Shown here piece by piece: positions 29,030 through 46,527 of a stretch of 64,000 nucleotides of DNA; within the stretch, counting starts at the first letter, position 1; every line of letters begins with the position of its first letter. The stretch is taken from NCBI GenBank assembly GCA_003151975.1, contig PLZD01000067.1, positions 1,143 through 65,142 on the forward strand, written 5' to 3'. Made by a program: the position numbers and the translations under genes. A model generated the notes under the pieces. The model saw only the letters and a program-made list of their open reading frames with translations, searched no databases and was not told where the DNA came from. Origin of the DNA: Elusimicrobiota bacterium. Lineage in GTDB: Bacteria; Elusimicrobiota; Elusimicrobia; UBA1565; UBA9628.

Positions 29030-32000
29030 ATGTTGCGGCGCTTCATTGCTACCGTTGTCTGCGCGGCCCTTATCGTGGCCTGCCCCGGCATCGAGTCATA
29101 CCACGCGATAGCCGGCGAGCTCGGCGAGATCAATGTTGGCGCGCGGCGCGCGCCCGCCCTTCCCGCTCTGCCGACCGCGATCCTGCCCGGCATCGCCAAC
29201 ATCACCCAGCTCTCGCAGACGCCGGGAAATCTAGCCACGGTCACCGAGGTCGCAACAGTTCATTCCGCGATCGCGACGCCTGGCGCGGCCGCTGCAAACA
29301 CTTCTTCGATCTCGAACGCCTCGGCGGTTGCTCAGCCTGAGACGGCGGAGGTTGAAAATGCGGGAAAACTGATCACACCGGAGGTCTTGGCGGGACTCAA
29401 CGCCACGACTAAGGGCGTCTCGGAAGCCGTCGAGGCCCTCGCCAAGCCCGATCTGAGCGCCGAGGGCGCGCACGCCGTCGGCGTCCGCCTCGAAGGCGCG
29501 GTTTCGCCTGCGGTCTCCGCCGAAGAGATTTCTCCCGCGGCCTCGGGCTTCTCAAATTTCTCGGGTAATGTTCATGCCAAGCAGAAGCGCGGCCTCGTCC
29601 AGTCCGTCGGCTTCTTTGCGAAAGCCAAGGGCTTCGTCCGCACAATTTCGGTCGCCGCGGTTCTGACGATCGCAACACTCGGCGGCCCCGTGCTGGCCCA
29701 GACCGTTCCGCAGGGCCCGGCGCCGGCCGGCCAGCAGCAGCAGGTTCCAGCTCCCGCCCAGCCCGGCGCGCCCGTGCTCGGCGCGCCTCAAGACACGGTC
29801 CAGGCCGAGGAGCCCGCGCCCAAGCAAATCGGACCCATCTCGGCGACCATCGCGATCCAAGGCCAGAACATGACGGTCGGCGATCGCTTCCACATCGCGC
29901 TCACGCTGACCAACAGCTCGGATAAGCCGGTCACGATCGCCAATCTGCGGAACTCGCTCAACGACGCCCTGCCCACGGACGTCGAGCTGCAGATGAACTC
30001 AGGGTCGGACGCCGTCACGCTAAAGCCCGGCGAGACGCAGACGGTCGTCTTCGAGACCATCGCGTTTGCCTCGGGCGACATCGCGATGGGCGGCCCGCTG
30101 ATTTTCAACGCGCAGCTCAATGGCCAGGCCGCCGAGATGCAGGCCATACTCGCCGACGGCGCGATCACGGTCAAGTCGGTCCTCACGCCCGATTGGAAGA
30201 AGATCGGCTTCAAGGATATCTACAGCGTCCTGCGCCAGGACGTGCCGCTCTGGGCGTGGCTGGCGGCGATCCCGCTGCTGCTGTCGCTGCTCGTCGCCGG
30301 CGAGCGCGTGCTCGCGGCCCAGCGCCGCGGCGCCAAGGTCCTCTCGGTGGGCCAGCCGCTGCTGGTCTCGACGCGCGCGCGCATGAAAGCGCTCGAAGGC
30401 GCCTTGGAGCAAAACGACGCGGCGTTCTACGCCGAGTACTACTCCATACTCTCGACTTTCCTGATCGACTCGCACGGCTTGTCCGTCAAGGAGCGCGACG
30501 CCAAGACCTTGATCTCGGACCTCAAGAAGGCTAAGAAGCTTTCCTCGGGCCAGCTTAAGGTCGCCTCAGATTTAGCGTTCTCAGCGGAAGCCGCGCGGTT
30601 CGGCGGCCGCGCTACGACGGCCGAGCAGCGCTCCGCCGACCTCGCGGCTCTGTCGTCTCTCGTGGACAACATCGCGGGTGCTTCGAAGACGCAGAAAACC
30701 GAAGGCCTACACAGCCTCGGCGGGCCGATGACGGGCCTGCAGTTCGGCAACCCCTACGCGCTGCTGCTCTTTTTGCCGCTGGCTGGGTATCTGGCTTGGA
30801 AGTTCATAGGCCGCAAGCAGGCCAGCGCCCAAGCCGCTTACCCGCTCTCGACGCTTTCCTCGGTCTCGCCGCGCAAGAGTTTCCGCCAGCGCTTCGGTTG
30901 GCTGACGAAGGGCCTTCGCGCCGCCGCCGTTTCCTTAATTCTGCTCGGCATCGCCGATCCCCAACTCGGCGTGCGCCGCCAGGAGACCATCACGCCGTCG
31001 ACCGACACTGAGCTCATCATCGACGTGTCGGGTTCGATGGACGAAGCCTTCAACGGTTCCGGCAGCCCCAGCAAGCTGGTGGCCGCCGAGGAGGCGATGA
31101 AGGCCTACATCAACGAGCAGCGGCGCGGCACGCAGAACCGCGTGGGCTTGGTCACTTTCTCGGACGAGTCTTACGTCGACATCCACCTCACTCAGGACTA
31201 CGACGCGCTGATCGCGCACTTGAAGGAGCTGCATACGATTTCTTCGACGGCGATCGGCAAGGGCATACTGACCGCGACGGGCCAGTTCCTCGAGGCCAAC
31301 GCCTACGAGCTGACCTCGCAGGACGACCCGCGCATCATCGAGGTTCAGCGCCTCATCCGCACCGAAGGCCTCGGCGCCGCTCTCGAGTATGCCAAGCCCT
31401 ACCCGGACCTCATGGACAAGATCGTCCGGCCCGACCGCAAGAAGGTCATCGTCCTTTTCACGGACGGCGAGTCCAACACTGGCCTTGAGCCCATCCCGGC
31501 CTCCGAGATCGCGGCGAAACTTGGCGTGCGCATCTACACGGTCGGCATCGCTCCCAAGGGCGGCACGGGCGTGGGCTACGATGAGAACACGCTGGTCACG
31601 GTGGCCAAGAACACCGGCGCGCAGTTCTTCCGGGCCGATGACGCCGACCGCATGCGCGAGATCCTGCTCGAAATCAATCGCCTCGAGAAGAGCCCGACCA
31701 AGATCGTGTCGGCCGTATCGGTCCAGAGCTACCAGCAATGGTTCATCATGCTGGCGCTGCTGGCGCTGGGCTTGGAGCTTGGCCTGGCCAACACGAGATT
31801 GCGCGTGCTGTCGGGCTTCTTGATGTTCACTTTGCCGTTCGGCAGCGTCGTCAATTTCAACCCGGCGCAGCAGCCTGCCGCGATCGTGCAGACCGTCGAC
31901 GCCCAGGCCCCGGCCGCGGAATCCGCTTTGCCGACCACCGGCGTGCCCGCCGAGGTCGCCGCGGCCAATCTGCTCTTCAACTCGGGCCGGTATGACGAAG

Positions 32001-35000
32001 CGCTCAAGGCCTACGCCAAGGCGCTCGAGAAGTATCCCGACATGGCCGAGCTCTACTACAACATGGGCAACGCCTACTTGAAGCTGGGCGACGTCGACCG
32101 CGCCAAGATCAGCTACGGCAAGTTTTTGAGCCTCAAACCCGACGCGAAGCTGGCTTCGAAGGCGATCTACAACATGGGCAACGCCGCGCTTTCCGCCAAG
32201 GACGTCGAAGGCGCTGTCGACAATTATAAGGAAGCCCTGCGCCGCGATCCGAACAACGACCGCGCCAAGTGGAACCTTGAGGTCATTAAGGCGCTCCAGA
32301 AAGAGCAGCAGCAGCAGCAATCCCAGCAGCAGCAGAAACAGCAGCAGAAGGAAGGCAAGCAGAAGCAGAACGGCAAGCAAAAGCAGAAAGGCGACCAGAA
32401 GGGCGATCAAAAGGGCGACCAGAAGGGCGATCAGAAAGGCGACCAGAAGGGAGACCAAAAGGGCGATCAGCAGGGCAAGCCCGGCGACCAGAAAGGCGAC
32501 GCCCAAGCCAAGCCCGGCGACAAAGAGAAGAGCGGCGCCGACCAGTTGACCGACAAACTCGGCGACCAGGAAAAGAAGGAAGGCGAGGCCGCGCGCAAGG
32601 CCATCCCGCGTAAGGGCGACAAGGTTTGGGGCCTCCTCGGACTGCCGCTGGCGGCCGGCGGCTCAACCGCCTTGGCTTTCGGCTCAGCCTGGATGCTCTG
32701 GGCGCTGGCTTTCGGCCTGCCCGTCGTCGCCGGCCTCATCGCCTACGGCATCCACAAGAAGATTCAAGCCGCCAAGCAGCTGACTCCGGGCACGGCGCCC
32801 GCGGGTTTTGCTTCCTGGTGGGGACGCAACGCTTTCCTGCGCAAGTCGGCGCTGATGATCACGGCGGCAGCCCTCCTTGGCCTGTCAGCGGCCAACCCGA
32901 AGAGCGGCTACAAGGACGAGCGCCTCAACTTCGGCGGCAAGGACATCGAGGTGGTGCTCGATAACTCGCTCTCCATGCTCTACGCCGAGGACGGCCGCGC
33001 CGACCGCACCCGCAAGGAGCTCACCGATTTCATCACGCACATGCAGGGCACCGACCGCATCGGCCTGGTGGTCTTCGCGGGCTCAGCAAGGACCGCGGCG
33101 CCCATCTCAATGGACTACGGCAATTTCGAGTACAAGCTGCAGAGGTTGGAAGTCGAGTCGCGCGGACTTAAATCCGGCTCGGACCTAGCCGCGGCGGTGC
33201 AGTTTGCCGCCAAGTCCTTCGAGGACGTCAAGCAGCTCGAGGGCCGCCAAAGGATCGTCATCATCATCTCCGACGGCGACATTTTCAACGAGGAACTCGA
33301 GGGCGCCGTAAAATCAGCGCAAGAGCACCACATCACGGTCTACACGATCGGCGTGGGCACGCCGGCCGGCTCCAAGATCAAGGTCCCGACCGAGGACGGC
33401 AAGGGCACCGAGTACGTCATCGACGAGAAGACCGGCCAGCCGGCCGTCACGACACTCGTCGAGGAGCCCCTGCGCCAGATCGCCTCGCGCACCGGCGGCG
33501 CCTACTTCCGCGCAGGCTCAGATTCCTCGATGAACCGCATTCTCGAGCAGATTTCGACGCTGCAGAAAGGCGAGAAGGGCGACACGATCAAGTCCCCGCG
33601 CGGCGTGGCGTCATGGTTCTTGTGGCCGACCATGCTCTTGCTGCTGCTCGAGATGCTGCTGCCGAGCAAGTCGGTGCTCAAGGACGACCGCAAAGAGAAA
33701 GCGCGCGGCGTAGCGGTTCTCGGCTTGGCCTCCTTGCCTTTGTCGGGTTATGCTCTGATGCTGCCTTTCGCCGTGCTCACGACCGTCGCCGTGGGCTTGC
33801 TTGCCGCCGACTATTGGAGCGGCGGAGCGATCCGGCGCAAGATCGCCTGGGAGCTCGAGCGCCGCCGCAAGCTCGTGGAAAACGGCGTCTTGACCGACGC
33901 CGCGGGCTTGTTCGATCTGCGCGAGACCGACGCCCCGAAGCTGTCGGCCTTCCTCAAGTCTTGGAGCGAGGCCGATGAGGCTGGAAAGAAAATCTTGTCC
34001 AACGAGGCGGTCTTAGACGAACAGCTGTGGCGCCAGAAGCTCGCCGCGGCCTTCGTCTACGGCAGCGCGCCGGAGACGCAGGAAGCGCTGCTCACGATGA
34101 TGGCGCGCACCGCGCAGAAGCGCCTCGAGCCGATGGCTCCGGTCGCCGAGCAGTTGCTCGCGCGGCGCGGCCGCCTGCCCTGGCTCGACCATGTCGACGC
34201 GGCGCGGCGCCTCGCGCGCCTCGCGCAGGCCTTCCTCGATAATTCGAAGCCTGAGAATCACGCCGCTTTGGTTTCGCTGCTCTCTCACCCCGACGCCGAG
34301 GTCCAGCAGGCCGCGCGCCAGGCGTTAGGCAGCGAAGTCCCGGCGCCGGCCCTCAAACGCGGGTTTTTCTTCAACTGGCGCAAATGGCTCTCGGTCGCCC
34401 TCTCGACTCTGATGCTCGCGTCCTCCATGACTTGGGCGGGCTTCTCCGGCTACAAGACGACGCAATTCTTCGAGGAGTCGGCCAAGGCGCGGGACTTCTC
34501 GATGCGGACCTTCTACCGCGAGGACATGTTCGTCTTCTCGGACCACTACGCCGACGACCGCATCACGACCGACGTCCTGCCGGCTCTCAAGGCGTGGCAA
34601 GAGAACCCGCAGTCCGCGGGCGCGGGCCTCGAGCGCGCACTGACGGTTCTCTCGCAGTCCCCCGATCCCAAGGCCGACAACGTGCTCGAAGTTATCCTTA
34701 AGCACGGCGACATCCTGCCGCTCACGCCGAAGGCGGAGTATATGCTGCTCCACACCCTCGTCATCCGCGACAACGACGACGTCTGGCGCTTCATGGAGGA
34801 CCACCTCCAGAAGAGCGCGCGCAACCCGCGCGCCGTCATCCTGATGGAGAAGATGATCGCCATAGGTGCTGCCGAGGGCAACGAGAAGGTTTTCCAGAAC
34901 ATCTTCCATTTCCTGAAGAGCCCCAGCGAGCAGATTCAGCAGGTGGCCACGGCCGCGATCGCGGCGTCGCTGTCGGCGCCCGACAAGGTGGCCAAGATCT

Positions 35001-38000
35001 TCGACCGCCTGACCGACGTGCAGTCGCGCTACGCTCAGGACCCCGAAATGAATTTGTGGGTGGAAAACTTCGTGCTCCAGCGTCTGGCGACGGCCGAGGC
35101 CAAGGACATCGACTCGGCCAAGGCGCGGGGCCTCATCGACAAGATTTTGGACGCGGGGTCGCCGTGGGCGGCGATGCGCGCTCAGGCGCTGGCCGCCCAA
35201 GCCGCGCAGCAAGCCCAGCAGCAGCCTCAAGCCGGCGCCGCCCCGGGCGCCGCTCCCCAGGCCCAGCAGCAAGCTCAGATTCCGCCGCCTTTCATCTTGA
35301 TCGTGTTCGGCCAGATGAACGACGCCGAGCAAGCTTTCGTTTCGAACGGCCAGGCCGTCCCCGGGCCGCTGGCCGACATGGTCAAGTACGCGGTCAACCG
35401 CACGATGACGCAGCTCATTAAGGAGGGCGAGGCGAAGTTCGGCGATTTGCACAAGCGTCTCATCGAAGCCGGCGTCGTCCTGCCCGATACTGAGAACTCC
35501 TACGGCGGCGGCTACGACGACGACTACGAGGGGCGCGGTTGGGGCGGCTACCGCGGCGGTCGCGGCGGCAGTTATTCCAGCACGTCGCAGAACTACCGCG
35601 AGCTCTACAAGCTCCAGCACATCCGCGATTTCGCCAAGCAGCTTTCCGAGGCCGCCCAGACGAGCGCCGCGGCCGACAGCGCATCGGTGAAGCCCGAGAC
35701 CCTCGAGTATCTCGACCGCGCCGCCCAGGCTTTGAAAATCATGGAGCCTCTGGGGCAAGCGTCGGGCATGCTCGATGGCGGCAGCGTGGGGGAGAAAGCG
35801 GCCGACGAGGTCAACAAAGTCCTCGACGCCACGGCCTCCAAGCTCACCGGCAGCGGTTTCCTCAACGCCCTGCGCGCCAAAAACGTCGCGCCCAGCAACG
35901 GGGTGGATTCCGGAGCCGCGCGCTTCCTCGAGACCTACACTTTCGAGAACATCGAGGCGATCAAGGCCGTGATCCGGGAGATCGCGGCATCCGGCAAGGG
36001 CTGGGACTACCAGGGCAACCAGCGGACTTTGCTGCTCAGCGAGAAGCAGGCGCTGGCCGCGGCCCTCGACGAGCTCACCGCCGCCGAAGCCAAGGTCTAT
36101 CCGGACAAGGCTAAGCCCGCGGCAGCGAGCGATTTCTGGAAGACGCTGGAGACGCCCGGCGAAGAGAGCCTGGCGTTGGCGCGCTTGAGCGTGGGCGCCG
36201 CCGCGCACGCGGCCGATGCCGAGTTCCAGCTGCGCGCGCTCAACTACCTGACGGCGCACGCCGACAAGAATTCCAATCCCGACGAGCTTTCCGAGATCAT
36301 CGCCCAACTGGCCAAGGCCGTCGAGAAAACCGACAAGGCCCCCGAGGTCCTCTCGATTCTCGCGCGCGTCGTCGACGGCAGGGCAGATAGCGATCCGCTG
36401 ACCGCCGCCATCCGAAAAGAGTATCAGCGCCAGGCGTCCGTCACGATCGCGGACGCGGTCTCAGGCTTCGGAAACCTGAGCCAGAAGCTGATCGATCTCA
36501 AGGTCCGGCCTTCCTCTTATTCCGATAAGCCGTACAAACTGATCGATCTCAAGGTTTTCCTTAAGGCGGTCGAGGACGAGGCGGCCGCCGTGGCCGGGCC
36601 GAATATGAGCGAGGACGCAAAGAAAGCGGCCGCTCGGGCACGGCTGATGGTGCCCAAGATCATCGAGCTGGGGACCAAGGTCGGCATCACGCCGGGAGAC
36701 TCCCCGGCCGATCTCGTCGCCGGTCCGGTCAACGATATCCTGCACCAGGGCTGGCAGCTCTTCGACGGCTCGACCTTCCTCGAGGCCATGCGCCGGCAGG
36801 GACTCGAGCCCGCGGGCAGCTCGACCGACATCTACACGGGCTACTACCAGGCTTACTCCAAGGACAGCCTCGAGAAGATCCTGAAATGGCTCAAGAACGT
36901 GAAGGCTTTGGGCGACGGCTGGAAATCGCAAGACATGTCCACCAAGCCCCTGAGCGACAAGGAGAAGGAATACCTCGACAAGGCCATCAAGGGCATCCAG
37001 GACCAGATCGACAACTATCCGAAAGCCGGGCCCGCCGCGACCGAAAAGAAAGTGTTCCACGGCATGGCGCTCGTCGGCTTGGGAACGCTCGGCACGGCGA
37101 TTTCCTGGATCGGAACCGGCCTGCTGATCGCGGCCGCGGCGGTGGTGATCTACTACGTGGTCCGCGCGGCGCTTAAGAAGACGAAGGCCGCGAGTCTGAC
37201 CCCCGTTTTCAACGCGGCGGCCGAAAGAACCGCGCCGGGACTCGACGGCAGATTTAAGAAAATCGAGATCACGGCCAAGCGCGTGGCCAACTCGGTGGCC
37301 GGCGGCAACTTTCGATCCGTTTTCATCGGCGCGGGCGGCACGGATTTCGCGGAAAGCAAGCCCTACGCCGGCGAGGACCTGCGCGACGTCGACTGGAAGA
37401 CCACCGCGCGCCAGGGCGAGCTCTACGCCAAGAAGTACGAGCTCGAAAAAGACATGCCGCTCATGCTGCTCATCGATCTCTCGCGCTCGGCCCAGTTCGG
37501 CACGCGCGGCGAATCCAAACGTGGCGTTATTGAAGACGCTTCCTCGGTTCTCGCGCTGGCGGCCGCCAACACCAACCTGCGCGTCGGCGCCATCATCTTC
37601 TCCGACAAGGTCGAGGCCTACATCCCGCCGCAATCCGGCGTCAACCACGCCCGCGAGATCGTGCGCCGCGTGCTCGCGTTTGATCCTAAGGGCCAAGCCA
37701 CGGACCTCAAGCCTGCGCTCGGTCTAGCGCTTAAGGAACTGCGTTCCCGGTCCATGATCGCGGTCGTCTCGGATTTCATCGCTCCTGATTTCAAGAATTC
37801 GCTGATGGCGCTCTCAGCGCGCCACGACCTGCGCCTGATCCGCGTCTCCGATCCCGCCGAGACCGCGCCCCTGCCAAAGGTGGGCCTGGTGCTCGTGCGC
37901 GACGCCGAGACCGGCGAGGTGCGCTACGTCGACACTTCCGATACGCGCTTCCGCACCGAGCACGCCGCCTTGCTGGCCAAGCAGGAAGCCGCCCGCCAGG

Positions 38001-38098
38001 CCGCTTTTACCGCCGCGCGCACCGTGCCGCTCACGCTTTCGACGGAAGGGGACCCTCTCGAGGCCCTGGCCGTGTCGCTTAGCCCCAAGAAAAAATGA
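29030..38098 (+). CDS. giant polytopic membrane protein (~3022 aa): single-polypeptide fusion of BatD-like, BatA-like VWA, BatC-like TPR plus Q/K tail, BatB-like VWA, ~1080 aa HEAT-like helical region and C-terminal DUF58 (MoxR-partner) domain
   Basis: Uninterrupted 9.07 kb ORF. Start is ATG 29030 (MLRRFIATVVCAALIVACPG signal peptide) or TTG 29009. MIDAS motifs DVSGSMDE at 31022 and DNSLSM at about 32960. TPR repeats at about 31961-32293. Q/K-rich (KGDQ)7 at 32387-32470. DUF58 signature KPYAGEDLRDVDWKTTARQGELYAKKYELE at about 37360. At least 14 hydrophobic TM segments flank the modules. Confidence 0.85.
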   Translation: MLRRFIATVVCAALIVACPGIESYHAIAGELGEINVGARRAPALPALPTAILPGIANITQLSQTPGNLATVTEVATVHSAIATPGAAAANTSSISNASAVAQPETAEVENAGKLITPEVLAGLNATTKGVSEAVEALAKPDLSAEGAHAVGVRLEGAVSPAVSAEEISPAASGFSNFSGNVHAKQKRGLVQSVGFFAKAKGFVRTISVAAVLTIATLGGPVLAQTVPQGPAPAGQQQQVPAPAQPGAPVLGAPQDTVQAEEPAPKQIGPISATIAIQGQNMTVGDRFHIALTLTNSSDKPVTIANLRNSLNDALPTDVELQMNSGSDAVTLKPGETQTVVFETIAFASGDIAMGGPLIFNAQLNGQAAEMQAILADGAITVKSVLTPDWKKIGFKDIYSVLRQDVPLWAWLAAIPLLLSLLVAGERVLAAQRRGAKVLSVGQPLLVSTRARMKALEGALEQNDAAFYAEYYSILSTFLIDSHGLSVKERDAKTLISDLKKAKKLSSGQLKVASDLAFSAEAARFGGRATTAEQRSADLAALSSLVDNIAGASKTQKTEGLHSLGGPMTGLQFGNPYALLLFLPLAGYLAWKFIGRKQASAQAAYPLSTLSSVSPRKSFRQRFGWLTKGLRAAAVSLILLGIADPQLGVRRQETITPSTDTELIIDVSGSMDEAFNGSGSPSKLVAAEEAMKAYINEQRRGTQNRVGLVTFSDESYVDIHLTQDYDALIAHLKELHTISSTAIGKGILTATGQFLEANAYELTSQDDPRIIEVQRLIRTEGLGAALEYAKPYPDLMDKIVRPDRKKVIVLFTDGESNTGLEPIPASEIAAKLGVRIYTVGIAPKGGTGVGYDENTLVTVAKNTGAQFFRADDADRMREILLEINRLEKSPTKIVSAVSVQSYQQWFIMLALLALGLELGLANTRLRVLSGFLMFTLPFGSVVNFNPAQQPAAIVQTVDAQAPAAESALPTTGVPAEVAAANLLFNSGRYDEALKAYAKALEKYPDMAELYYNMGNAYLKLGDVDRAKISYGKFLSLKPDAKLASKAIYNMGNAALSAKDVEGAVDNYKEALRRDPNNDRAKWNLEVIKALQKEQQQQQSQQQQKQQQKEGKQKQNGKQKQKGDQKGDQKGDQKGDQKGDQKGDQKGDQQGKPGDQKGDAQAKPGDKEKSGADQLTDKLGDQEKKEGEAARKAIPRKGDKVWGLLGLPLAAGGSTALAFGSAWMLWALAFGLPVVAGLIAYGIHKKIQAAKQLTPGTAPAGFASWWGRNAFLRKSALMITAAALLGLSAANPKSGYKDERLNFGGKDIEVVLDNSLSMLYAEDGRADRTRKELTDFITHMQGTDRIGLVVFAGSARTAAPISMDYGNFEYKLQRLEVESRGLKSGSDLAAAVQFAAKSFEDVKQLEGRQRIVIIISDGDIFNEELEGAVKSAQEHHITVYTIGVGTPAGSKIKVPTEDGKGTEYVIDEKTGQPAVTTLVEEPLRQIASRTGGAYFRAGSDSSMNRILEQISTLQKGEKGDTIKSPRGVASWFLWPTMLLLLLEMLLPSKSVLKDDRKEKARGVAVLGLASLPLSGYALMLPFAVLTTVAVGLLAADYWSGGAIRRKIAWELERRRKLVENGVLTDAAGLFDLRETDAPKLSAFLKSWSEADEAGKKILSNEAVLDEQLWRQKLAAAFVYGSAPETQEALLTMMARTAQKRLEPMAPVAEQLLARRGRLPWLDHVDAARRLARLAQAFLDNSKPENHAALVSLLSHPDAEVQQAARQALGSEVPAPALKRGFFFNWRKWLSVALSTLMLASSMTWAGFSGYKTTQFFEESAKARDFSMRTFYREDMFVFSDHYADDRITTDVLPALKAWQENPQSAGAGLERALTVLSQSPDPKADNVLEVILKHGDILPLTPKAEYMLLHTLVIRDNDDVWRFMEDHLQKSARNPRAVILMEKMIAIGAAEGNEKVFQNIFHFLKSPSEQIQQVATAAIAASLSAPDKVAKIFDRLTDVQSRYAQDPEMNLWVENFVLQRLATAEAKDIDSAKARGLIDKILDAGSPWAAMRAQALAAQAAQQAQQQPQAGAAPGAAPQAQQQAQIPPPFILIVFGQMNDAEQAFVSNGQAVPGPLADMVKYAVNRTMTQLIKEGEAKFGDLHKRLIEAGVVLPDTENSYGGGYDDDYEGRGWGGYRGGRGGSYSSTSQNYRELYKLQHIRDFAKQLSEAAQTSAAADSASVKPETLEYLDRAAQALKIMEPLGQASGMLDGGSVGEKAADEVNKVLDATASKLTGSGFLNALRAKNVAPSNGVDSGAARFLETYTFENIEAIKAVIREIAASGKGWDYQGNQRTLLLSEKQALAAALDELTAAEAKVYPDKAKPAAASDFWKTLETPGEESLALARLSVGAAAHAADAEFQLRALNYLTAHADKNSNPDELSEIIAQLAKAVEKTDKAPEVLSILARVVDGRADSDPLTAAIRKEYQRQASVTIADAVSGFGNLSQKLIDLKVRPSSYSDKPYKLIDLKVFLKAVEDEAAAVAGPNMSEDAKKAAARARLMVPKIIELGTKVGITPGDSPADLVAGPVNDILHQGWQLFDGSTFLEAMRRQGLEPAGSSTDIYTGYYQAYSKDSLEKILKWLKNVKALGDGWKSQDMSTKPLSDKEKEYLDKAIKGIQDQIDNYPKAGPAATEKKVFHGMALVGLGTLGTAISWIGTGLLIAAAAVVIYYVVRAALKKTKAASLTPVFNAAAERTAPGLDGRFKKIEITAKRVANSVAGGNFRSVFIGAGGTDFAESKPYAGEDLRDVDWKTTARQGELYAKKYELEKDMPLMLLIDLSRSAQFGTRGESKRGVIEDASSVLALAAANTNLRVGAIIFSDKVEAYIPPQSGVNHAREIVRRVLAFDPKGQATDLKPALGLALKELRSRSMIAVVSDFIAPDFKNSLMALSARHDLRLIRVSDPAETAPLPKVGLVLVRDAETGEVRYVDTSDTRFRTEHAALLAKQEAARQAAFTAARTVPLTLSTEGDPLEALAVSLSPKKK
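32387..32470 (+). repeat. in-frame tandem 12-nt repeat (aagggcgaccag)x7 encoding (KGDQ)7 within the megaprotein
   Basis: Seven consecutive near-identical 12-mers; lies inside a Q/K-rich low-complexity tail after the TPR block. Confidence 0.9.
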
Positions 38099-39615
38099 AC
38101 CGAGGTAACGCCATGAAGACGACGCTCTCGCAAATGATGAAGACTGCGGCCTTGCTGGGCCTGTTCGCCCTGCTCTGTCCCCGCGCGGCGCACGCTGTTG
38201 ATTTCGCCGAGCGCTCCGCGGTGACGCCCGGCGTCCAGCTCAAGCTTGTGACGCTCGACCCGAAGATCGGCGCGCTCGGCAAGCCCGGCGACGGCATCAG
38301 CATCGACCCCCTCGCGGCCCAGCTTCACAATGTCCTGACCGCGGCCGGCCTCTTGACCGAGGCCCCCGGCCAGATCGCGATCCTCACGATCCCTCAGCCC
38401 TTGGCGACGATTTCCAACGGCCCTAAAGCCGCCAACGACGTCGGGACTCCGGCGGAGGCCTCGCAGGCGCGTCTTGCCGAGATCACTAAGACGGTTGTGG
38501 ATATGCCCGACATCTCGAAGGCCGAAGGCACGGATGCCTCCGGCGCTGGACGCACGCTCTCCGACGCCGTCACCGGAGAGAAGACGGTCCACGCCGGCGC
38601 CGTCGAGGCCGAGGCGACGCCGACGGCTCCCGCTAAGCCGCTCAAGCAGCAAATCACCGAGGGCAAAGCCGTCGTCGACGGCATCCGCTCCGAAGTCAGC
38701 AAGGTCATCGTCGGCCAGAATGAAATGATCAACTCGATCATCATGACGATGATCGCGCGCCAGCACGTTCTGCTCGAAGGTCTGCCCGGCGTCGGCAAAA
38801 CCGAAACCGCCAAGGCCTTCGCCGACGCGATCGACGGCTCGTTCCAGCGCGTGCAGGGCACTTCCGACAAGCTGCCCTCCGACATCCTCGGCACCGAGGT
38901 CCTTCAAGAGGACCCGGCCACCGGCAAGAAGTTCTGGGAGCTCTCTAAGGGCCCCATCTTCACGAACATCCTGCTCGCCGACGAAATCAACCGCATGCCG
39001 CCCAAGGCCCAGGCGTCCTTGCTCGAAGCCATGGCCGAAGGCCGCGTGACCATCGGCCGCCAGACGGTCGACCTGCAGCGCTTCACGGTGCTCGCCACGC
39101 AAAACCCCGTCGAGCAGGACGGCACCTACCGCCTGCCCGAGGCGCAGCTCGACCGCTTCATGTTCAAGGTGCTCGTGCCTCAGCCGAGCGCGTCGGATTT
39201 GAAGGTCATCATGGAGCGCAACCGGTCGAAGGAGAACCGCCCGAAAGCGTCCAAGGTCACGAACTTGGCGCAGTTGGACGACATCCGGCGCACCGCCGAG
39301 CAGATCCCGATGGACGCTCAGATCGAGGACTACATCATCAAGATCGTCATGGCCGCCAAGGAGCACGCCGATCTCAAGGATAGTGTGGAATACAGCGTCT
39401 ACACGCGCGCGGCGATCTTCATGGCGCAGGCCGCCCGCATCCACGCCTTGATGGAAGGGCGCGATTGGGTGAGCCCCGCGGATGTGCGCGCGGTAGCACC
39501 CCTCGTCATGCGGCACCGCATCGTGCTCAACTACCAGGCCGCCGGCACGACGTCCGACCAGGTCATCACGAAGATTCTCGACTTGGTCGCTCCGCCGAAG
39601 GTCGCGGCCAAGTAA
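38095..39615 (+). CDS. MoxR-family AAA+ ATPase (AAA_3) with N-terminal signal-anchor and ~190 aa Ala/Pro/Thr-rich extension
   Basis: 506 aa; ATGA overlap with the megaprotein stop; Walker [10 protein letters not shown], Walker B LLADEINR, sensor ATQNP; N-terminal hydrophobic segment [20 protein letters not shown]. Confidence 0.88.
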
Positions 39616-39637: not shown

Positions 39638-39666
39638 CGAGGCCCCCGAAAGGGGGCCTTTGTTTT
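39638..39666 (+). terminator. rho-independent terminator after moxR
   Basis: GGCCCCC-gaaa-GGGGGCC perfect 7 bp GC stem followed by TTTGTTTT. Confidence 0.85.
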
Positions 39667-39722
39667 GCCGGCAGAGTTTTCTCATATACAACAGACCGGC
39701 TTGTTCGTATGATCTGTGCTGC

Positions 39723-41471
39723 ATGCGGGTTCTTTGCTCAGGCCTTCGTTTCCTTTGCGTCGGCGTCGTTCTCGCGTCTGCGTGCGGTTCCGGCGATCAA
39801 CTGCGCGCGGCGTCGCCCGCAGCCTGCGAACAGTCGTTGATCTCGTCGTGGCAGCAGTCTCTCCCCTCGGTGGGATTTGCGAGCGCCGCGTCGGCGGCCG
39901 CGTATGACGCCGAGATCGCGGCCCTTCTTGATCGTCCCTGGATGGGGCATCCGCTGTCCACGTATCCGGGAGGACGCTGGCCCGCCGTCTCGGTGGCGGT
40001 CGTCCAGCAAGGCAGGCTCGTCTTCGCCAAGAGCTATGGCTTTGCGAATATCTCGCAGCCTCAGCTGGCCCACCCCGATGACCTCTTCCGTCTGGCAAGC
40101 GACAGCAAGCAGATCACCGGCGCCGTGATCTTGAAGCTGATCGCCGACGGTCAATCGGTCGACGGCGATCCGGCGCATCGGCTGACTCTGCAGAGCAAGG
40201 TCTTCCAGATCCTGGCCAGTCCGCCCGGTGCCCTCGCGCCGCTCGCGGGGCCCGGGACGCTTCATGCGGACCTCGACGACATCACGGTCGAGGATCTCCT
40301 GCACCACGCAGGCGGATGGAACGGCGGCGTCGGCGATCCGGTAGACTACGCCGGCAAGCCGGGGGCCGTCCTTCCGCCGACCGACAAGGATGTGGTCCGG
40401 TACATGATGAACCAGCCGGTCCAGCACAGGCCGCATGGCAGCACTTACTGCTACTCGAATTTTGGCTACAACGTGCTGGCGACTTTGGTCGAGAAGATAA
40501 CAGGCCGATCCTATGAGAGCGTCGCAAAAGACCTCGTGCTGCGGCCCTTGGGCATCACGCGCATGAAAATCGGTGATTCGCTCAAATCCGGTGCCGGCGA
40601 GGTCACGTACTACGCGGCCGAGGGCGGTGGAAACTTGAGGTCGCTGTTTCCAGAGATGACCGGGCCCACGGTCTCCGGAGAGGACGCGCCCTACGGCAGT
40701 TGGTCTCTCTACGCGGGCCGGGGCGCGGGCGGCTGGATTGGTTCTGCGATGGACATGGTGCGTTTTCAGATCGGCGTGGATGGGACGGGCCCGGTCCAGC
40801 TTTTCTCCTCGCCGCAAGCGATGGTCTCGAGCGCCAATATCTCGCCTAACGCCTGCTACCCAAATTACAATCCGGCGACGCAGTGGTACAACGCCGGCTG
40901 GATCGTCGTCAAAAACGGCGTGTGGGGACATGACGGCGGCGCCACGGGCGCGGGAAGCAACACGACGAAGCTTCCCAACGGCGACGGCTACGCGGCCGTC
41001 ATCAATATGTCCGCAGCGCCCCCGAAGGGAGAAGTCTTCGATTGGGACGGGGCTCTCTCGAGAGCTTACCATCGCACGCTCGCCAACGGCGGCTCGTTTT
41101 TAAAAACCGACCTTTTCGATCAATTTGGAGAGTGGACCGCGTGGCGCGGCAAGGCCGGCATTTCATCGAACGCCGCTCATGATCTTGGCGCCGGCTGCGC
41201 GTACAAGGGGAAAAACTATTCCGCGTGCTATCCTTCGCGAATCGAGGGACGGCAGACCCGGGCGGGGGCAAGCTACCGGGCCGAGTTCGTGCCGCTGCAT
41301 GCCGGAGGCGAGGTTAAATACTCTTTGGGAGCCGCCTGCAATGACTTCGCGGCGATGGATAAGAAATATTTGAGCGGCGGTTATCACCGAGTCAACCTTC
41401 AATGGTTCGAGGACCCGGCGGGGCGCATGCGCTTTCAAAGCGTGTGGGTCAAGGCGGCCGACCGGCGTTGA
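39723..41471 (+). CDS. beta-lactamase-fold serine hydrolase lipoprotein (PBP4/AmpC/esterase family) with ~200 aa C-terminal extension
   Basis: Lipobox LASAC; SDSK (SxxK) and YSN motifs; ATG about 63 nt into the track ORF (MRVLCSGLRF...). Confidence 0.75.
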   Translation: MRVLCSGLRFLCVGVVLASACGSGDQLRAASPAACEQSLISSWQQSLPSVGFASAASAAAYDAEIAALLDRPWMGHPLSTYPGGRWPAVSVAVVQQGRLVFAKSYGFANISQPQLAHPDDLFRLASDSKQITGAVILKLIADGQSVDGDPAHRLTLQSKVFQILASPPGALAPLAGPGTLHADLDDITVEDLLHHAGGWNGGVGDPVDYAGKPGAVLPPTDKDVVRYMMNQPVQHRPHGSTYCYSNFGYNVLATLVEKITGRSYESVAKDLVLRPLGITRMKIGDSLKSGAGEVTYYAAEGGGNLRSLFPEMTGPTVSGEDAPYGSWSLYAGRGAGGWIGSAMDMVRFQIGVDGTGPVQLFSSPQAMVSSANISPNACYPNYNPATQWYNAGWIVVKNGVWGHDGGATGAGSNTTKLPNGDGYAAVINMSAAPPKGEVFDWDGALSRAYHRTLANGGSFLKTDLFDQFGEWTAWRGKAGISSNAAHDLGAGCAYKGKNYSACYPSRIEGRQTRAGASYRAEFVPLHAGGEVKYSLGAACNDFAAMDKKYLSGGYHRVNLQWFEDPAGRMRFQSVWVKAADRR

Positions 41472-43554: not shown

Positions 43555-46527
43555 ATGAGGAGAATGTTGTCGCTCGCGCTTTTGGCCATGTTCGCAATGC
43601 CGTTATTTGCGGGCGAGTCCGTCGAGGTCAGAATCACGGGCTTTGACGCGGCCCCCAAGGCGCTTGGCACGGGCACTTCGCCTCTGCGCCTCGTCCCGAC
43701 CGGCGTCAACAACATTCCCCAGCTTCCCGCGGGCATCACCGATTTGAAGACGTACGACGGCCCCATGGGCGCGTTCCAGATGCCCGCGGCTTCATACTTG
43801 CCTCAATACGAGGTTTCAAAAGGCGCGGTCGTAGCCCCGGGACTGCGGCTCGCGACCCCCGAGGAGGGGGCGACTCCCGAAGCCATTGGGCCCAAGAGCG
43901 AACTCTCCGAGACCGGTCCGGCCAACCACGATTCCGAGAAGCCATCCGCGAAGGCCGAGCTCAACGCCGCGGGCGTCGAGGGTGCTTCCAATCCGCAGGC
44001 GCCCGCCGAGGACCTGGCCGCGGGCGAAAAGAAAGTTTTCGACGGCGAAAGCGCGACGACTCTGACTTACGCCGAAGTGGCCCCGAGCCGCATAGGACGG
44101 TTACTCAACGCGGCGGGGTCCCTGCTCAGCCGCGGCGTCAAGCGCGTGCTGCCGGCAAAGAAGGTCGACGCTCCTCCGACGACCGACGCCTACGGCGGCC
44201 CGCAGCGGCTCGAGCTGGGCTTCAAGGGCAAGATTTCCTACGGCCTCAAGTGGGGCCTCAACATGATCGGCCTAGGCGCGCTGGTCAACGTCGCGGCCAA
44301 GTTCTTCGCGATGATCCTGCCGTGGCAGCTGCTCGTTCCCGATTCCATGCTGCAGTCCGCCGGCCGTGCCGAGCTCTTGGCGCGCATGGGTCCCAAGGCG
44401 GTCGACGCGGCCTTGGTCCACTCGCCGTGGCACTTTCTCTTCGTGCAGCTGCCCAGCGCCACGTTCTGGGAGGAAGCCGGCACCCTTCCCATGATGCTGA
44501 CCGCCGTCGGCTTCCGCGGGCTTGAGCTCGGCGTGCTGTGGTTCATACTCAAGGGCGCGCGCAACGCCGCAAACGCGCTGTCGCAGAAAATCGGCCAGCC
44601 GGTTTTGAAGACGATCCTCGCCGCTTTGGGCGCGATTTCAAACAAGAAAGTTTTCTACGCCGCGCTGGCGCTCACCGTCGTGAGCTTCGTCGCTCCGCCC
44701 CTGCATATCGCGCTCGCGCCGCTGACTTACTCCGCGCTCGGTTCGCGCTTGTTCGGCTTCGGCGTGCTGTGGAGCGCGCTGGCCGCGGTCCGCCCCGTCG
44801 CTGACCAGCTGGCCAAGTGGCTCGAGGCGGTTCCCGATCTCATGGGCGTGCGCAGCGGCGCGCAATCCGCGCTCGGCCACATCGGCGGCATTTCAAAGAA
44901 GGCCTTCCCGATGGCCGCTTTCGTCTCGGCTTTGGCATTCGCCGCTAATCACTTCGCGGCCTGGGGCGTGAGCCCGTCGCTGATCGTTTTGCAGACGACG
45001 ATGGGCGCGACCTTGGCCTACATTAGCTACAAGACGCGCAGTCTCTTCGTGCCCTTCGTGGCGCACTACGCTTTCAACTTGCTGACTTTGGGCGGCGCGC
45101 TGCTCGCGGCCCACTTCCTCATGCCGATGGTAGCGCAGATCTACACGCTGGGCCTCGGCGTGACGGGAGTCGCTTTCCTTTATTACAACTGGCGCGCCAA
45201 CCACAAGACGAAGGCTCAGGCCAAGGCTCAGCACAAAGCGGATTTGATGGCGCGCGCCGGCAAAGTCGTCTTGCCTGTTCTCTTGATGGCGATGACGGCC
45301 GGCTCCTTGATCGGGCCCGGTCATCTGACCAAGTCCTTTAATGAGGCCGCCAACAACAAAGCCGCTCAGACTTGGACCGTGCAGGACGTGGACAAAGCCG
45401 ACAAGAAGGCTGAGTCCACGCCCGCGGCCGCCAAGCCCGCCGCCGATACCGCCAAGGCCCAGCCGGTGCGCGTCAGCCTCTCGCAGGCCATCGACATCAT
45501 GACGATCCAGGCCACCGCCAAGGCCAAGCCCGCCGTGGTCAAGATTTTTTCGGGCAACGCTTTGGGCTCGGGCTACATCATCTCGGCCGACGGCATCGTG
45601 ATCTCCAACGCCCACGTGACCGGGGCGGCGGAGGTCGGCGACATTCTGAACATGGAGTTCTCCGACGGCACCACCGGCAAGGTCAAGGTTCTGGCTTTCA
45701 ACCACAACAAGGACATCGCGATCTTGCAGCTGCCGGCAAAAGAGGGCGGCTGGCCGTTCATCCCGCTAGGCGATAGTAAGAAGCTCTCCGAGGGCCAGGG
45801 CGTGCTCGCGATGGGTTATCCGCTCGGCCTGCCCTTCACCGTGACGCGCGGCATCATCAGCGGCATCGGCGGCGGCCGCGGCAGCATCTACGTCCAGCAG
45901 ATCCAGACCGACGCGGCCATCAATCACGGCAACTCCGGCGGCGCGCTCATCAACATGGACGGCGAGGTCATCGCGATGAACACCGCGATCGCCGCCCCCA
46001 CGCCCGAGAGCGGCTCGATCGGCATCGGCTTTTCGATAACGTCGGAGGATATCAAGGCGGCGCTGAGTCAATACGCGGCCATGGGCAACATCAACACTTC
46101 TTGGATCGGCATCATCGTCAATCAGGCCAACCCGACGGCCCCTGATCAAGGAGTGCTCATCGAGGTCGTCCGGCCGGGCTCGCCCGCCGATAAGGCGGGG
46201 CTGCGCGGCGGCGACCTGCTGCTCGGCGCCGAGAAGCACCGCTTCGACAAGGGACCGCGCGGCCTGGAGGCGCTGGCCCGCACCATCGCTCAGCACAAGC
46301 CCGGCGAGAAGATCGAGGTGCTCGTGGCGCGTCAGGGCGACGTGGCGCCGGTCGCCGTCACTTTGGCCAACGAGCCCGGCTCGCCGACGGCAGTCGCCGC
46401 TCCCGCCGCGACGACTCCCGCCGCACCCGCACCCGCGCCCGCACCGAAGCCTTCGCTGTGGGGGCGCTTCACCGGCGCCTTGTCCGAGATCCTGCGGGCG
46501 ATCTTCTCCGGCCTCTCTCCTAAATAA
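43555..46527 (+). CDS. secreted/membrane fusion protease: N-terminal periplasmic region, CPBP (CAAX/Abi) intramembrane protease-like domain, HtrA-like trypsin serine protease and PDZ
   Basis: Signal peptide MRRMLSLALLAMFAMPLFAGE (alternative starts 43546 and 43564; track TTG 43477). CPBP motifs WEEAG, FAANH, HYAFN. Trypsin triad NAHV, NKDIAIL, GNSGGAL. PDZ GVLIEVVRPGSPADKAGL. Confidence 0.8.
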   Translation: MRRMLSLALLAMFAMPLFAGESVEVRITGFDAAPKALGTGTSPLRLVPTGVNNIPQLPAGITDLKTYDGPMGAFQMPAASYLPQYEVSKGAVVAPGLRLATPEEGATPEAIGPKSELSETGPANHDSEKPSAKAELNAAGVEGASNPQAPAEDLAAGEKKVFDGESATTLTYAEVAPSRIGRLLNAAGSLLSRGVKRVLPAKKVDAPPTTDAYGGPQRLELGFKGKISYGLKWGLNMIGLGALVNVAAKFFAMILPWQLLVPDSMLQSAGRAELLARMGPKAVDAALVHSPWHFLFVQLPSATFWEEAGTLPMMLTAVGFRGLELGVLWFILKGARNAANALSQKIGQPVLKTILAALGAISNKKVFYAALALTVVSFVAPPLHIALAPLTYSALGSRLFGFGVLWSALAAVRPVADQLAKWLEAVPDLMGVRSGAQSALGHIGGISKKAFPMAAFVSALAFAANHFAAWGVSPSLIVLQTTMGATLAYISYKTRSLFVPFVAHYAFNLLTLGGALLAAHFLMPMVAQIYTLGLGVTGVAFLYYNWRANHKTKAQAKAQHKADLMARAGKVVLPVLLMAMTAGSLIGPGHLTKSFNEAANNKAAQTWTVQDVDKADKKAESTPAAAKPAADTAKAQPVRVSLSQAIDIMTIQATAKAKPAVVKIFSGNALGSGYIISADGIVISNAHVTGAAEVGDILNMEFSDGTTGKVKVLAFNHNKDIAILQLPAKEGGWPFIPLGDSKKLSEGQGVLAMGYPLGLPFTVTRGIISGIGGGRGSIYVQQIQTDAAINHGNSGGALINMDGEVIAMNTAIAAPTPESGSIGIGFSITSEDIKAALSQYAAMGNINTSWIGIIVNQANPTAPDQGVLIEVVRPGSPADKAGLRGGDLLLGAEKHRFDKGPRGLEALARTIAQHKPGEKIEVLVARQGDVAPVAVTLANEPGSPTAVAAPAATTPAAPAPAPAPKPSLWGRFTGALSEILRAIFSGLSPK

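Follow-up and report, generated by a model that had tools for sequence, protein, structure and literature searches.

A MoxR-type AAA+ ATPase with a signal-peptide-like leader and tether, encoded behind a fused Bat gene in Elusimicrobia

The window analysed here is a stretch of 64,000 nucleotides (nt) from an Elusimicrobiota bacterium (NCBI GenBank assembly GCA_003151975.1, contig PLZD01000067.1, positions 1,143 to 65,142 of the forward strand). On its plus strand it encodes a MoxR AAA+ ATPase of 500 amino acids (aa), in which a 190-aa extension, consisting of a signal-peptide-like segment, a disordered tether and a conserved two-helix motif, precedes a canonical MoxR core. The signal-like N-terminus and the long extension before the core, proposed in an original prediction made from the sequence alone, were confirmed by our analysis. 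The leader-tether module marks a MoxR subfamily that, as far as seen, is restricted to Elusimicrobia. The protein is thus a genuine variant of the known MoxR family that is conserved and had not been described before. Tentatively, we favour a reading in which the module targets the protein to the membrane, while the ATPase stays in the cytoplasm beside the DUF58 domain of its giant partner protein.

Architecture of the extended MoxR protein

The gene and the parts of its product are listed below, with residues numbered in the 506-aa frame that begins at position 38095 (GC3, GC content at third codon positions; HMM, hidden Markov model; pLDDT, predicted local distance difference test).

38113..39615, plus strand: gene of the MoxR (MRP-type) AAA+ ATPase, 500 aa from the preferred start; the ATG at 38095 would add 6 codons (506 aa)
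38101..38105, plus strand: Shine-Dalgarno-like GAGGT, 7 nt before ATG 38113 and just past the stop codon of the upstream giant gene (38096-38098)
38113..38196, plus strand: signal-peptide-like segment with a basic n-region, a 12-residue hydrophobic core and a proline plus A-x-A; helix at residues 4-26
38197..38448, plus strand: disordered A/P/T/G/L-rich tether (residues 35-118), pLDDT ~35, in-frame GC3 0.78-0.92
38449..38601, plus strand: conserved two-helix motif (helices 119-135 and 147-160), the subject of the motif HMM
38641..39612, plus strand: canonical MoxR core with an N-terminal helix, AAA_3 (38764-39165) and AAA_lid_2 (39379-39576)

The AlphaFold model of the window protein divides it along the same lines.

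Residues 4-26: helix, pLDDT 53-73
Residues 27-118: disorder, pLDDT ~35
Residues 119-135 and 147-160: a pair of helices coinciding exactly with the motif, pLDDT ~65
From residue 183: confident core, pLDDT >90

Pfam placed AAA_3 at residues 224-357 (177.8 bits, cut-off 27) and AAA_lid_2 at residues 429-494 (67 bits, cut-off 22.7), and neither Pfam nor NCBIfam searches returned a match on residues 1-195. The only solved relative, the canonical 331-aa MoxR of Protein Data Bank entry 2R44, matched residues 191-491 (E 1.2e-63) and could be aligned only from residue ~197; the AAA core had been predicted to begin at about residue 195. The catalytic motifs of the core are intact (Walker A GLPGVGKT, Walker B LLADEINR, sensor-1 N337 and the DRF arginine), and K235, T236, D296, E297, N337 and R354 are invariant across the 20-22 aligned family members. 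By its AAA_3 and AAA_lid_2 domains, its intact ATPase motifs and its DUF58/VWA neighbours, the window protein is assigned to the MoxR/MRP AAA+ family. It departs from the typical MoxR layout (~300-335 aa, soluble, without a hydrophobic N-terminus) in its 500 aa and its signal-like N-terminus.

Ahead of the core, the signal-like segment ends in PRAAHA after its 12-residue hydrophobic core and is followed by VDF; it contains no twin-arginine (Tat) motif. Residues 35-195 consist of 17% A, 10% T, 9% G, 9% L, 8% V and 8% P. Although described originally as a low-complexity A/P/T/G linker, the stretch is not uniform: residues 27-118 are predicted to be disordered, and the helices at 119-135 and 147-160 coincide with the conserved motif. 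The motif has the consensus hydrophobic-P-D...A.G.G..(L/I)(E/D)DA(M/V)TG..S, in which G152 is nearly invariant, and the tether is of variable length among the relatives and hard to align.

Start codon and coding status

Counted from its first ATG, the open reading frame (ORF) spans 38095..39615 (+) and comprises 506 aa, and this first ATG had originally been taken as the start. Among all in-frame ATG, GTG and TTG codons in the first 230 codons, however, ATG 38113 (MKTTLSQ...), six codons further on, is the only one with a Shine-Dalgarno motif (GAGGT). The same ATG was chosen by public gene calls, which give a 500-aa product, and an equivalent start (GAGGT-N6-ATG-MKKTLSQ) is found in the closest relative, locus L005. 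Given this Shine-Dalgarno motif and the agreement of the public gene calls and L005, ATG 38113 is the most probable start, in preference to 38095.

The original prediction had also allowed for a true start inside the protein, a possibility that we reject. Codons 137-211 contain no in-frame ATG, GTG or TTG at all, and no internal start with a Shine-Dalgarno motif was present in the 230 codons scanned. The candidate Met137 (MPD) was rejected, as it has no Shine-Dalgarno motif and its position is occupied by L, M or V among the relatives. The relatives have their Shine-Dalgarno motif ahead of the signal-segment ATG: AGGAG lies 6-8 nt before it in L006, L010, L012, L014, L015 and L016, and AGGAG or GAGGT takes this place in at least six distant relatives. 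Moreover, the motif HMM built from the extension retrieved seven independent MoxR loci outside its building set, with E-values of 5e-5 to 2e-15, which likewise speaks against an internal start.

In-frame GC3 amounts to 0.85 in the extension, 0.90 in the core and 0.86 in the upstream gene, and codon periodicity changes frame precisely at 38095, the gene junction. The ratio of nonsynonymous to synonymous substitution rates (dN/dS) in the comparison with L005 was 0.39 over the full extension. The signal segment taken separately gave 0.18, close to the 0.19 of the core; all three figures are approximate since dS is close to saturation. Judged from codon usage and selection, the 190-aa extension is genuine in-frame coding sequence under selection and not an annotation artefact. 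An antisense ORF of 530 aa (37924-39516, minus strand) was discarded as a GC-rich artefact, its codon-position GC matching the plus frame.

Conservation and distribution of the leader-tether module

An exhaustive, profile-free protein search covered 1.84 billion representatives. Most matches were canonical MoxRs of 310-335 aa, and the best ~20 measured 460-733 aa and were alignable deep into the extension. The same layout was present in at least 27 homologues with 35-58% identity, and all that could be placed are metagenome-assembled genomes (MAGs) of Elusimicrobia. Their shared N-terminus consists of a basic n-region, a hydrophobic core of 9-17 residues, a Pro/Gly, a small-x-small pattern, a charge-poor A/P-rich stretch and the motif.

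Signal-peptide character was scored with a simple heuristic (n-region, core, breaker and small residues at -3/-1), which was positive in 27/27 family members with complete N-termini and in 0 of ~38 other extended MoxRs, such as FHA fusions and proteins with K/E-rich tails. Among the 150 best representatives, 61 exceeded 380 aa and 23 had a signal-like N-terminus, every one of them belonging to this family. The original view that the architecture is unusual for MoxR is thus borne out for the signal-like N-terminus, which is confined to this family among those 150, but was overstated for extensions as such.

Beyond the loci mentioned above, the motif HMM had no other match in the 64-kb window or in 12 related loci. 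A genome scan with the pattern DK[LM]P[SA]DI[LI]G, taken from the family signature RIQGTPDKLPSDI (ordinary MoxRs: RIQFTPDLLPSDI), yielded 12 loci, namely 10 Elusimicrobia/Elusimicrobiota MAGs and 2 unclassified 'bacterium' MAGs; an earlier genome scan with the window protein alone had given no match, so that the family-specific alignment was needed. The comparison with MoxR homologues beside fused bat genes, which the original prediction had proposed as a check, revealed the same leader layout in the related Elusimicrobia loci. The extension alone, searched against 5.8 billion proteins, retrieved only a 139-aa fragment from the same organism. A 22-sequence profile of the extension retrieved only two known members and no stand-alone leader homologue, in a search that was weak because low-complexity words swamped the candidate list.

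Public records label the family proteins merely 'MoxR family ATPase' or 'MoxR-like ATPase', generic names under which the leader is invisible in present annotation. Literature searches returned no paper on the leader feature, on a periplasmic AAA+ protein or on MoxR in Elusimicrobia.

A giant fused Bat protein as partner

The original prediction had linked the ATPase to a giant membrane partner, and this link was strengthened by a fused Bat ORF located directly upstream in all loci with enough sequence.

29030..38098, plus strand: partner gene, encoding a fused Bat polyprotein of 3,022 aa; each complete locus has a homologous giant upstream of MoxR
37106..37990, plus strand: last transmembrane (TM) segment of the giant (37106-37162) followed by DUF58 (37367-37990), the presumed direct partner of the ATPase

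From its N-terminus, the giant comprises a signal-like N-terminus, an Ig-like region, BatA_N plus VWA, a TPR module, a (QKGD)n stretch, a BatB-like VWA, HEAT/Arm-like repeats, a stretch of ~870 aa in which no family match was found, a TM segment and DUF58. Pfam matched BatA_N, VWA (three stretches), TPR and DUF58 (196 bits), and the NCBIfam models scored 177 bits for BatA, 84 bits for BatB and 68 bits for BatC, all under their full-length cut-offs because the modules are fused. BatA, BatB, BatC, DUF58 and MoxR components thereby occur together in the window. For BatD (the Pfam 'oxygen tolerance' domain) no match was found, and residues 286-356 of the giant gave a weak Ig-like Transglut_C match (E 0.005).

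The codons of the DUF58-terminated giant stop 14 nt ahead of the MoxR start. In the loci with enough upstream sequence, MoxR likewise follows an ORF of 2,950-3,390 aa, with a gap of 1-15 nt or an ATGA overlap, and even in the most divergent members (P0078 and P0054) the upstream ORF is still DUF58-terminated. The MoxR gene is in all cases translationally coupled to the 3′ (DUF58) end of the giant.

The giant itself carries two signal-peptide-like segments, at residues 12-28 (29042-29092; MLRRFIATVVCAALIVACPG) and at residues 212-230 (29642-29698; KAKGFVR-TISVAAVLTIATLGG-PVLA|Q). The second lies ~170-190 aa after the first and has K/R before it and the Ig-like domain after it, as though a ~190-aa leader had been prefixed to a protein already bearing its own signal, which poses the same topological puzzle as in MoxR. 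This double arrangement is kept in L005, L008 and L014. In L005 (JACQAZ010000012.1, positions 221-330) the giant N-terminus is out of frame with the remainder, and a +1 shift is needed to read the signal-like LRRLIATAVSAALIVVCPG, suggesting a frameshift that is either assembly-made or real. The possibility that the giant N-terminus contains the same module as MoxR (signal-like helix, A/P linker, ...PDLSAEGAHAVGVRLEGA...) was rejected: hhalign gave only a weak match (E 0.009, probability 4%) and the motif HMM matched none of the giants, leaving no more than an architectural resemblance, as for the Rce1-trypsin-PDZ neighbour described below. Further on, after the TPR module, a 12-bp tandem repeat (CAGAAGGGCGAC x 7.8 at 32384-32476, also 32297-32401) encodes the (QKGD)n stretch within a K/Q/D-rich low-complexity region.

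Membrane side of the ATPase

In the reading that we favour, with less than even confidence, the leader-tether directs the protein to the membrane and the ATPase is cytoplasmic, next to DUF58. The N-terminal helix would serve for targeting and attachment, either to the inner membrane itself or to the TM portion of the giant. The disordered ~90-residue A/P/T/G tether would supply reach, and the two-helix motif, which may be a docking or regulatory element, would stay with the ATPase on the cytoplasmic face. The ATPase ring would in this way be kept beside the giant and act on DUF58. We infer this membrane side and the anchoring role of the leader, the signal-like segment of which may or may not be cleaved.

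One argument for the cytoplasmic side is the invariance of all ATP-hydrolysis residues in the family. Another comes from six members (P0012, P0014, P0016, P0017, P0019 and L010) in which motif and ATPase are separated by an additional hydrophobic stretch of ~42 uncharged residues. The centre of this insert is a conserved W-x-P-A, and its second half is G/S-x-x-x-G-like. The insert is present in L010 and P0012 (the next relative) and is absent, through a clean ~68-residue indel, from P0013 (83% identical core) and L016 (75%), while a basic R-x-L-L-G-R-P-x-G stretch before the indel site is conserved in L010, L012/P0013 and L016. As it was gained or lost among close kin with conserved flanking modules, the insert must be topology-neutral, i.e. 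a hairpin, and by this parity argument the extension and the ATPase would lie on one side of the membrane. The giants of L010 (with insert) and L012 (without insert) were compared, and no compensating change or TM segment was found. Moreover, K/R residues flank the insert on both sides (5 and 4 in P0012, 3 and 1 in P0014; by hand counts 2-5 before and 1-4 after) and are missing from its centre, which corresponds to the positive-inside pattern of a hairpin whose two ends are cytoplasmic.

In members with a C-terminal TM segment (P0017 and P0030) or with W/K-rich or amphipathic C-terminal tails (P0060, P0078 and P0014), the K/R residues are on the ATPase side. Likewise, in 7/8 giants scanned the 12 residues after the TM segment that leads to DUF58 include 2-4 K/R, whereas there are none ahead of it (no such TM segment was found in L008), which predicts a cytoplasmic DUF58. 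We prefer a cytoplasmic ATPase because its ATP requirement, the parity argument and the three independent positive-inside observations outweigh the resemblance of the leader to a signal peptide. Part of this resemblance (the Pro/Gly and A-x-A) would in fact come automatically from an A/P-rich linker after any hydrophobic helix.

The C-terminal tails are W/K/R-rich (KPWWKRWGRG, KSLWKPWTWFK or VSWLQRILRAVRLKKA) or lead into a full C-terminal TM segment. They form a second, independent membrane-attachment device, which is absent from the window protein. An attempt to derive the full topology of the giant by TM counting was abandoned: the C-terminal half is self-consistent and the N-terminal third is not (its signal-like N-terminus, the internal segment and the first TM segment of BatA conflict), so that the giant is unusable for fixing the side of the leader modules.

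Several points weigh against the favoured reading. Topology was judged with hydrophobicity (Hessa scale) and positive-inside rules of thumb applied by hand. In its sequence, the N-terminus shows all the hallmarks of a Sec signal peptide of the cleavable type (by the heuristic: a basic n-region, a core within 7-15 residues, a breaker and small residues at -3/-1, with family cores of 9-17), and the standard Sec mechanism would export whatever follows such a signal. The tether is charge-poor; in this it resembles the linkers of envelope proteins, whereas the cytoplasmic extensions of other MoxRs are K/E-rich. For the insert of P0012, AlphaFold predicted a single 38-residue helix (215-252, pLDDT 60-78) and not a hairpin, which we keep as the probable form on evolutionary grounds. 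The BatA/BatB-type VWA of the giant is predicted to be periplasmic, having a K/R-rich loop between its first two TM segments and K/R after its closing TM segment, as in the BatA-like BB0173 of Borrelia burgdorferi, which was mapped experimentally as N-out with its VWA facing the periplasm (PMC5700661). With VWA domains in the periplasm, an exported MoxR would meet them. Finally, the reading requires a signal-like helix to attach without triggering export.

An uncleaved membrane anchor, as originally proposed, fits the segment poorly. Its core of 12 residues falls short of the 18-20 or more that a bilayer-spanning stretch needs, and the best 19-residue window of the N-terminus reaches ~+4.1 kcal/mol on the Hessa scale, which is not TM-grade, compared with -0.5 to +1.7 kcal/mol for the real internal and C-terminal TM segments of the relatives. 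The N-flank carries a charge of +2 (K2 and K10) and is basic in 27/27 members, and the 15 residues past the core have a net charge of 0, so that an anchor with such a basic N-flank and a neutral or acidic C-flank would be oriented N-in/C-out. These values suggest that the segment is too short for a stable anchor and oriented N-in, which counts against our reading as well. An N-in uncleaved anchor would leave the ATPase outside, and the anchor idea therefore does not solve the ATP problem for which it had been put forward.

A rather unlikely alternative is that MoxR is exported, with cleavage after AHA, so that the tether, motif and AAA+ ATPase cross the membrane via Sec and act on the periplasm-facing Bat VWA domains. 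It can draw on the textbook signal-peptide features of all 27 complete members, on the acidic early mature region of the query subclade (VDFAER, net -1), on a tether that is A/P-rich and poor in charge, and on the extension and ATPase sharing one side. The partner VWA is predicted to be periplasmic, as was mapped for BB0173 (PMC5700661), and MoxR has been postulated to load the metal-ion-dependent adhesion site (MIDAS) of Bat VWA domains (PMC3557215). Against export, several relatives carry +2 or +3 within ~10 residues past the putative cleavage site (AFARVIKVRLN, QAARASGRAARA and RTLSRVSNTK). Positive charge soon after a signal peptide disfavours Sec export. Moreover, no periplasmic ATP supply is known, yet the ATP-hydrolysis residues are all invariant; the K/R flanking the insert and beside the C-terminal TM segments would fall on the wrong side; DUF58, the translationally coupled neighbour, is predicted to be cytoplasmic; and a full-text literature search returned no precedent.

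Quite unlikely is a split topology, in which only the tether, and perhaps the motif, is periplasmic while the ATPase remains cytoplasmic, the long variants being type-I proteins by virtue of a single-pass TM segment. With the same degree of doubt, such proteins could have originated by fusion of a small exported membrane protein to MoxR, and the short variants would then cross by unrecognised means or be processed. This arrangement reconciles the signal-peptide features with the indicators of a cytoplasmic ATPase and agrees with the continuous helix modelled for the P0012 insert and with the marginal hydrophobicity of the second half of the insert (3.2-3.8 kcal/mol); the giant, with its signal-like N-terminus followed by a basic stretch and a second signal-like segment, poses the same puzzle. 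However, a second hydrophobic segment is lacking in the window protein and in most family members; only the N-terminal window comes within +4.5 kcal/mol, and none falls in the TM range. A single-pass insert that is present or absent in close kin would flip the conserved ATPase repeatedly, and the partner has no compensating TM segment.

An annotation artefact or functionless fusion relic, resulting from an internal canonical start or a neutral leftover of the upstream ORF, is highly improbable and largely refuted, for although the extension has no Pfam or NCBIfam match, retrieves by itself only the same-organism fragment and is mostly predicted to be disordered, there is no usable internal start, the Shine-Dalgarno motif and ATG are conserved ahead of the signal segment, codon bias and a dN/dS below 1 indicate coding, and at least 27 proteins with 35-58% identity have kept both the signal-like segment and the motif.

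Relation to known systems

MoxR proteins rank among the most widespread and least understood AAA+ chaperones, and the Bat system, too, is still without a known function. Canonical MRP-type MoxRs (Bacteroides BatI, Borrelia BB0176, mycobacterial MoxR1 and 2R44 of Cytophaga hutchinsonii) have the same AAA_3 and AAA_lid_2 domains and catalytic motifs as the window protein and are likewise linked to DUF58, BatA/BatB-type VWA and TPR modules; the MRP subfamily is defined by the position of MoxR beside DUF58 and VWA proteins (PMC12067865). They measure ~310-335 aa and lack a hydrophobic N-terminus, whereas the window protein adds the 190-aa module of signal-like segment, tether and motif. The usual MoxR signature RIQFTPDLLP(S/A)DI reads R(I/V)QGTPDK(L/M)P(S/A)DI in the family. 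Moreover, the gene order is inverted: canonical operons have separate genes in the order moxR-DUF58-batA-batB-batC-batD, with moxR before DUF58, whereas in the window the partners form one ORF of ~3,000 aa and moxR comes last, after DUF58. BB0173 combines BatA_N and VWA with the same K/R-rich loop between its first two TM segments as the giant, but it is a separate 341-aa protein beside an ordinary MoxR, whereas the window modules are fused and their MoxR has a signal-like leader (PMC5700661).

In its working principle, the window protein may come nearest to ZipA-like tethering or to FtsH, Bcs1 and Msp1, although it fails to match their anchor length and orientation. E. coli ZipA has an N-terminal anchor, a long P/Q-rich unstructured tether and a cytoplasmic globular domain, and the favoured reading would share with it the hydrophobic N-terminus and proline-rich leash that tether a cytoplasmic domain. 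The ZipA TM segment of ~21 residues is oriented N-out/C-in, since its N-tail is without charge and its C-flank strongly basic; the window protein differs in its 12-residue core, basic N-flank and neutral or acidic C-flank. FtsH, Bcs1 and Msp1 are members of the classic AAA clade with true TM helices at the N-terminus, so that an AAA+ ring is held at the membrane by N-terminal hydrophobic segments, as would be the case here in the favoured reading. The long variants P0012, P0014, P0017, P0019 and L010 carry real TM segments before the ATPase, as these proteins do, but the window protein has no TM-grade segment, and none of FtsH, Bcs1 and Msp1 is known to combine an N-terminus resembling a cleavable signal with a long disordered tether behind it.

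A formal precedent for an exported AAA+ protein is provided by torsins, eukaryotic AAA+ proteins with a cleavable signal peptide that reside in the lumen of the endoplasmic reticulum, which imports ATP. Among well-known AAA+ proteins, no others are known to bear a secretion signal, but they are not of the MoxR clade and show no sequence relationship beyond the AAA+ fold; we know of no usable ATP in the bacterial periplasm.

The usual assumption is that MoxR, from the cytoplasm, loads the metal site of BatA-type VWA domains (PMC3557215), whereas the mapped VWA domain lies in the periplasm (PMC5700661), which amounts to a topological paradox. A MoxR subfamily that has a secretion-signal-like leader and is tied to a single-polypeptide Bat machine offers a natural experiment, and whether the ATPase is tethered under the membrane or exported, either outcome constrains how MoxR and Bat assemble. 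Should the ATPase be exported after all, the VWA/MIDAS domains of the Bat complex would be served by an AAA+ ATPase that works in the bacterial periplasm. Either nucleotide would then have to reach the periplasm by a route so far unrecognised, or the AAA+ ring would have to be energised in a new manner. It would also resolve the paradox of how MoxR services Bat VWA domains.

Neighbouring genes

The two-gene unit of giant and MoxR is closed by one further feature.

39639..39668, plus strand: intrinsic-terminator-like hairpin GAGGCCCCC-GAAA-GGGGGCCTT (39639-39660) followed by a T-run

Past this terminator, 39660-41471 (+) encodes a member of the beta-lactamase family (582 aa) whose N-terminus (…VVLASAC) resembles that of a lipoprotein, and the sole sigma-70-like promoter match of the region lies just before this gene (39685-39713). 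Further downstream, 43564-46527 (+) encodes a 987-aa fusion of an Rce1-like (CPBP) intramembrane protease, a trypsin-like protease and PDZ domains; its N-terminus is signal-like, and it includes an A/P-rich region. A protein of the same Rce1-trypsin-PDZ type directly follows MoxR in the contig of P0002, the closest homologue, and is itself followed by the same DHDPS and DapF genes. Its position may reflect a conserved functional link or mere synteny.

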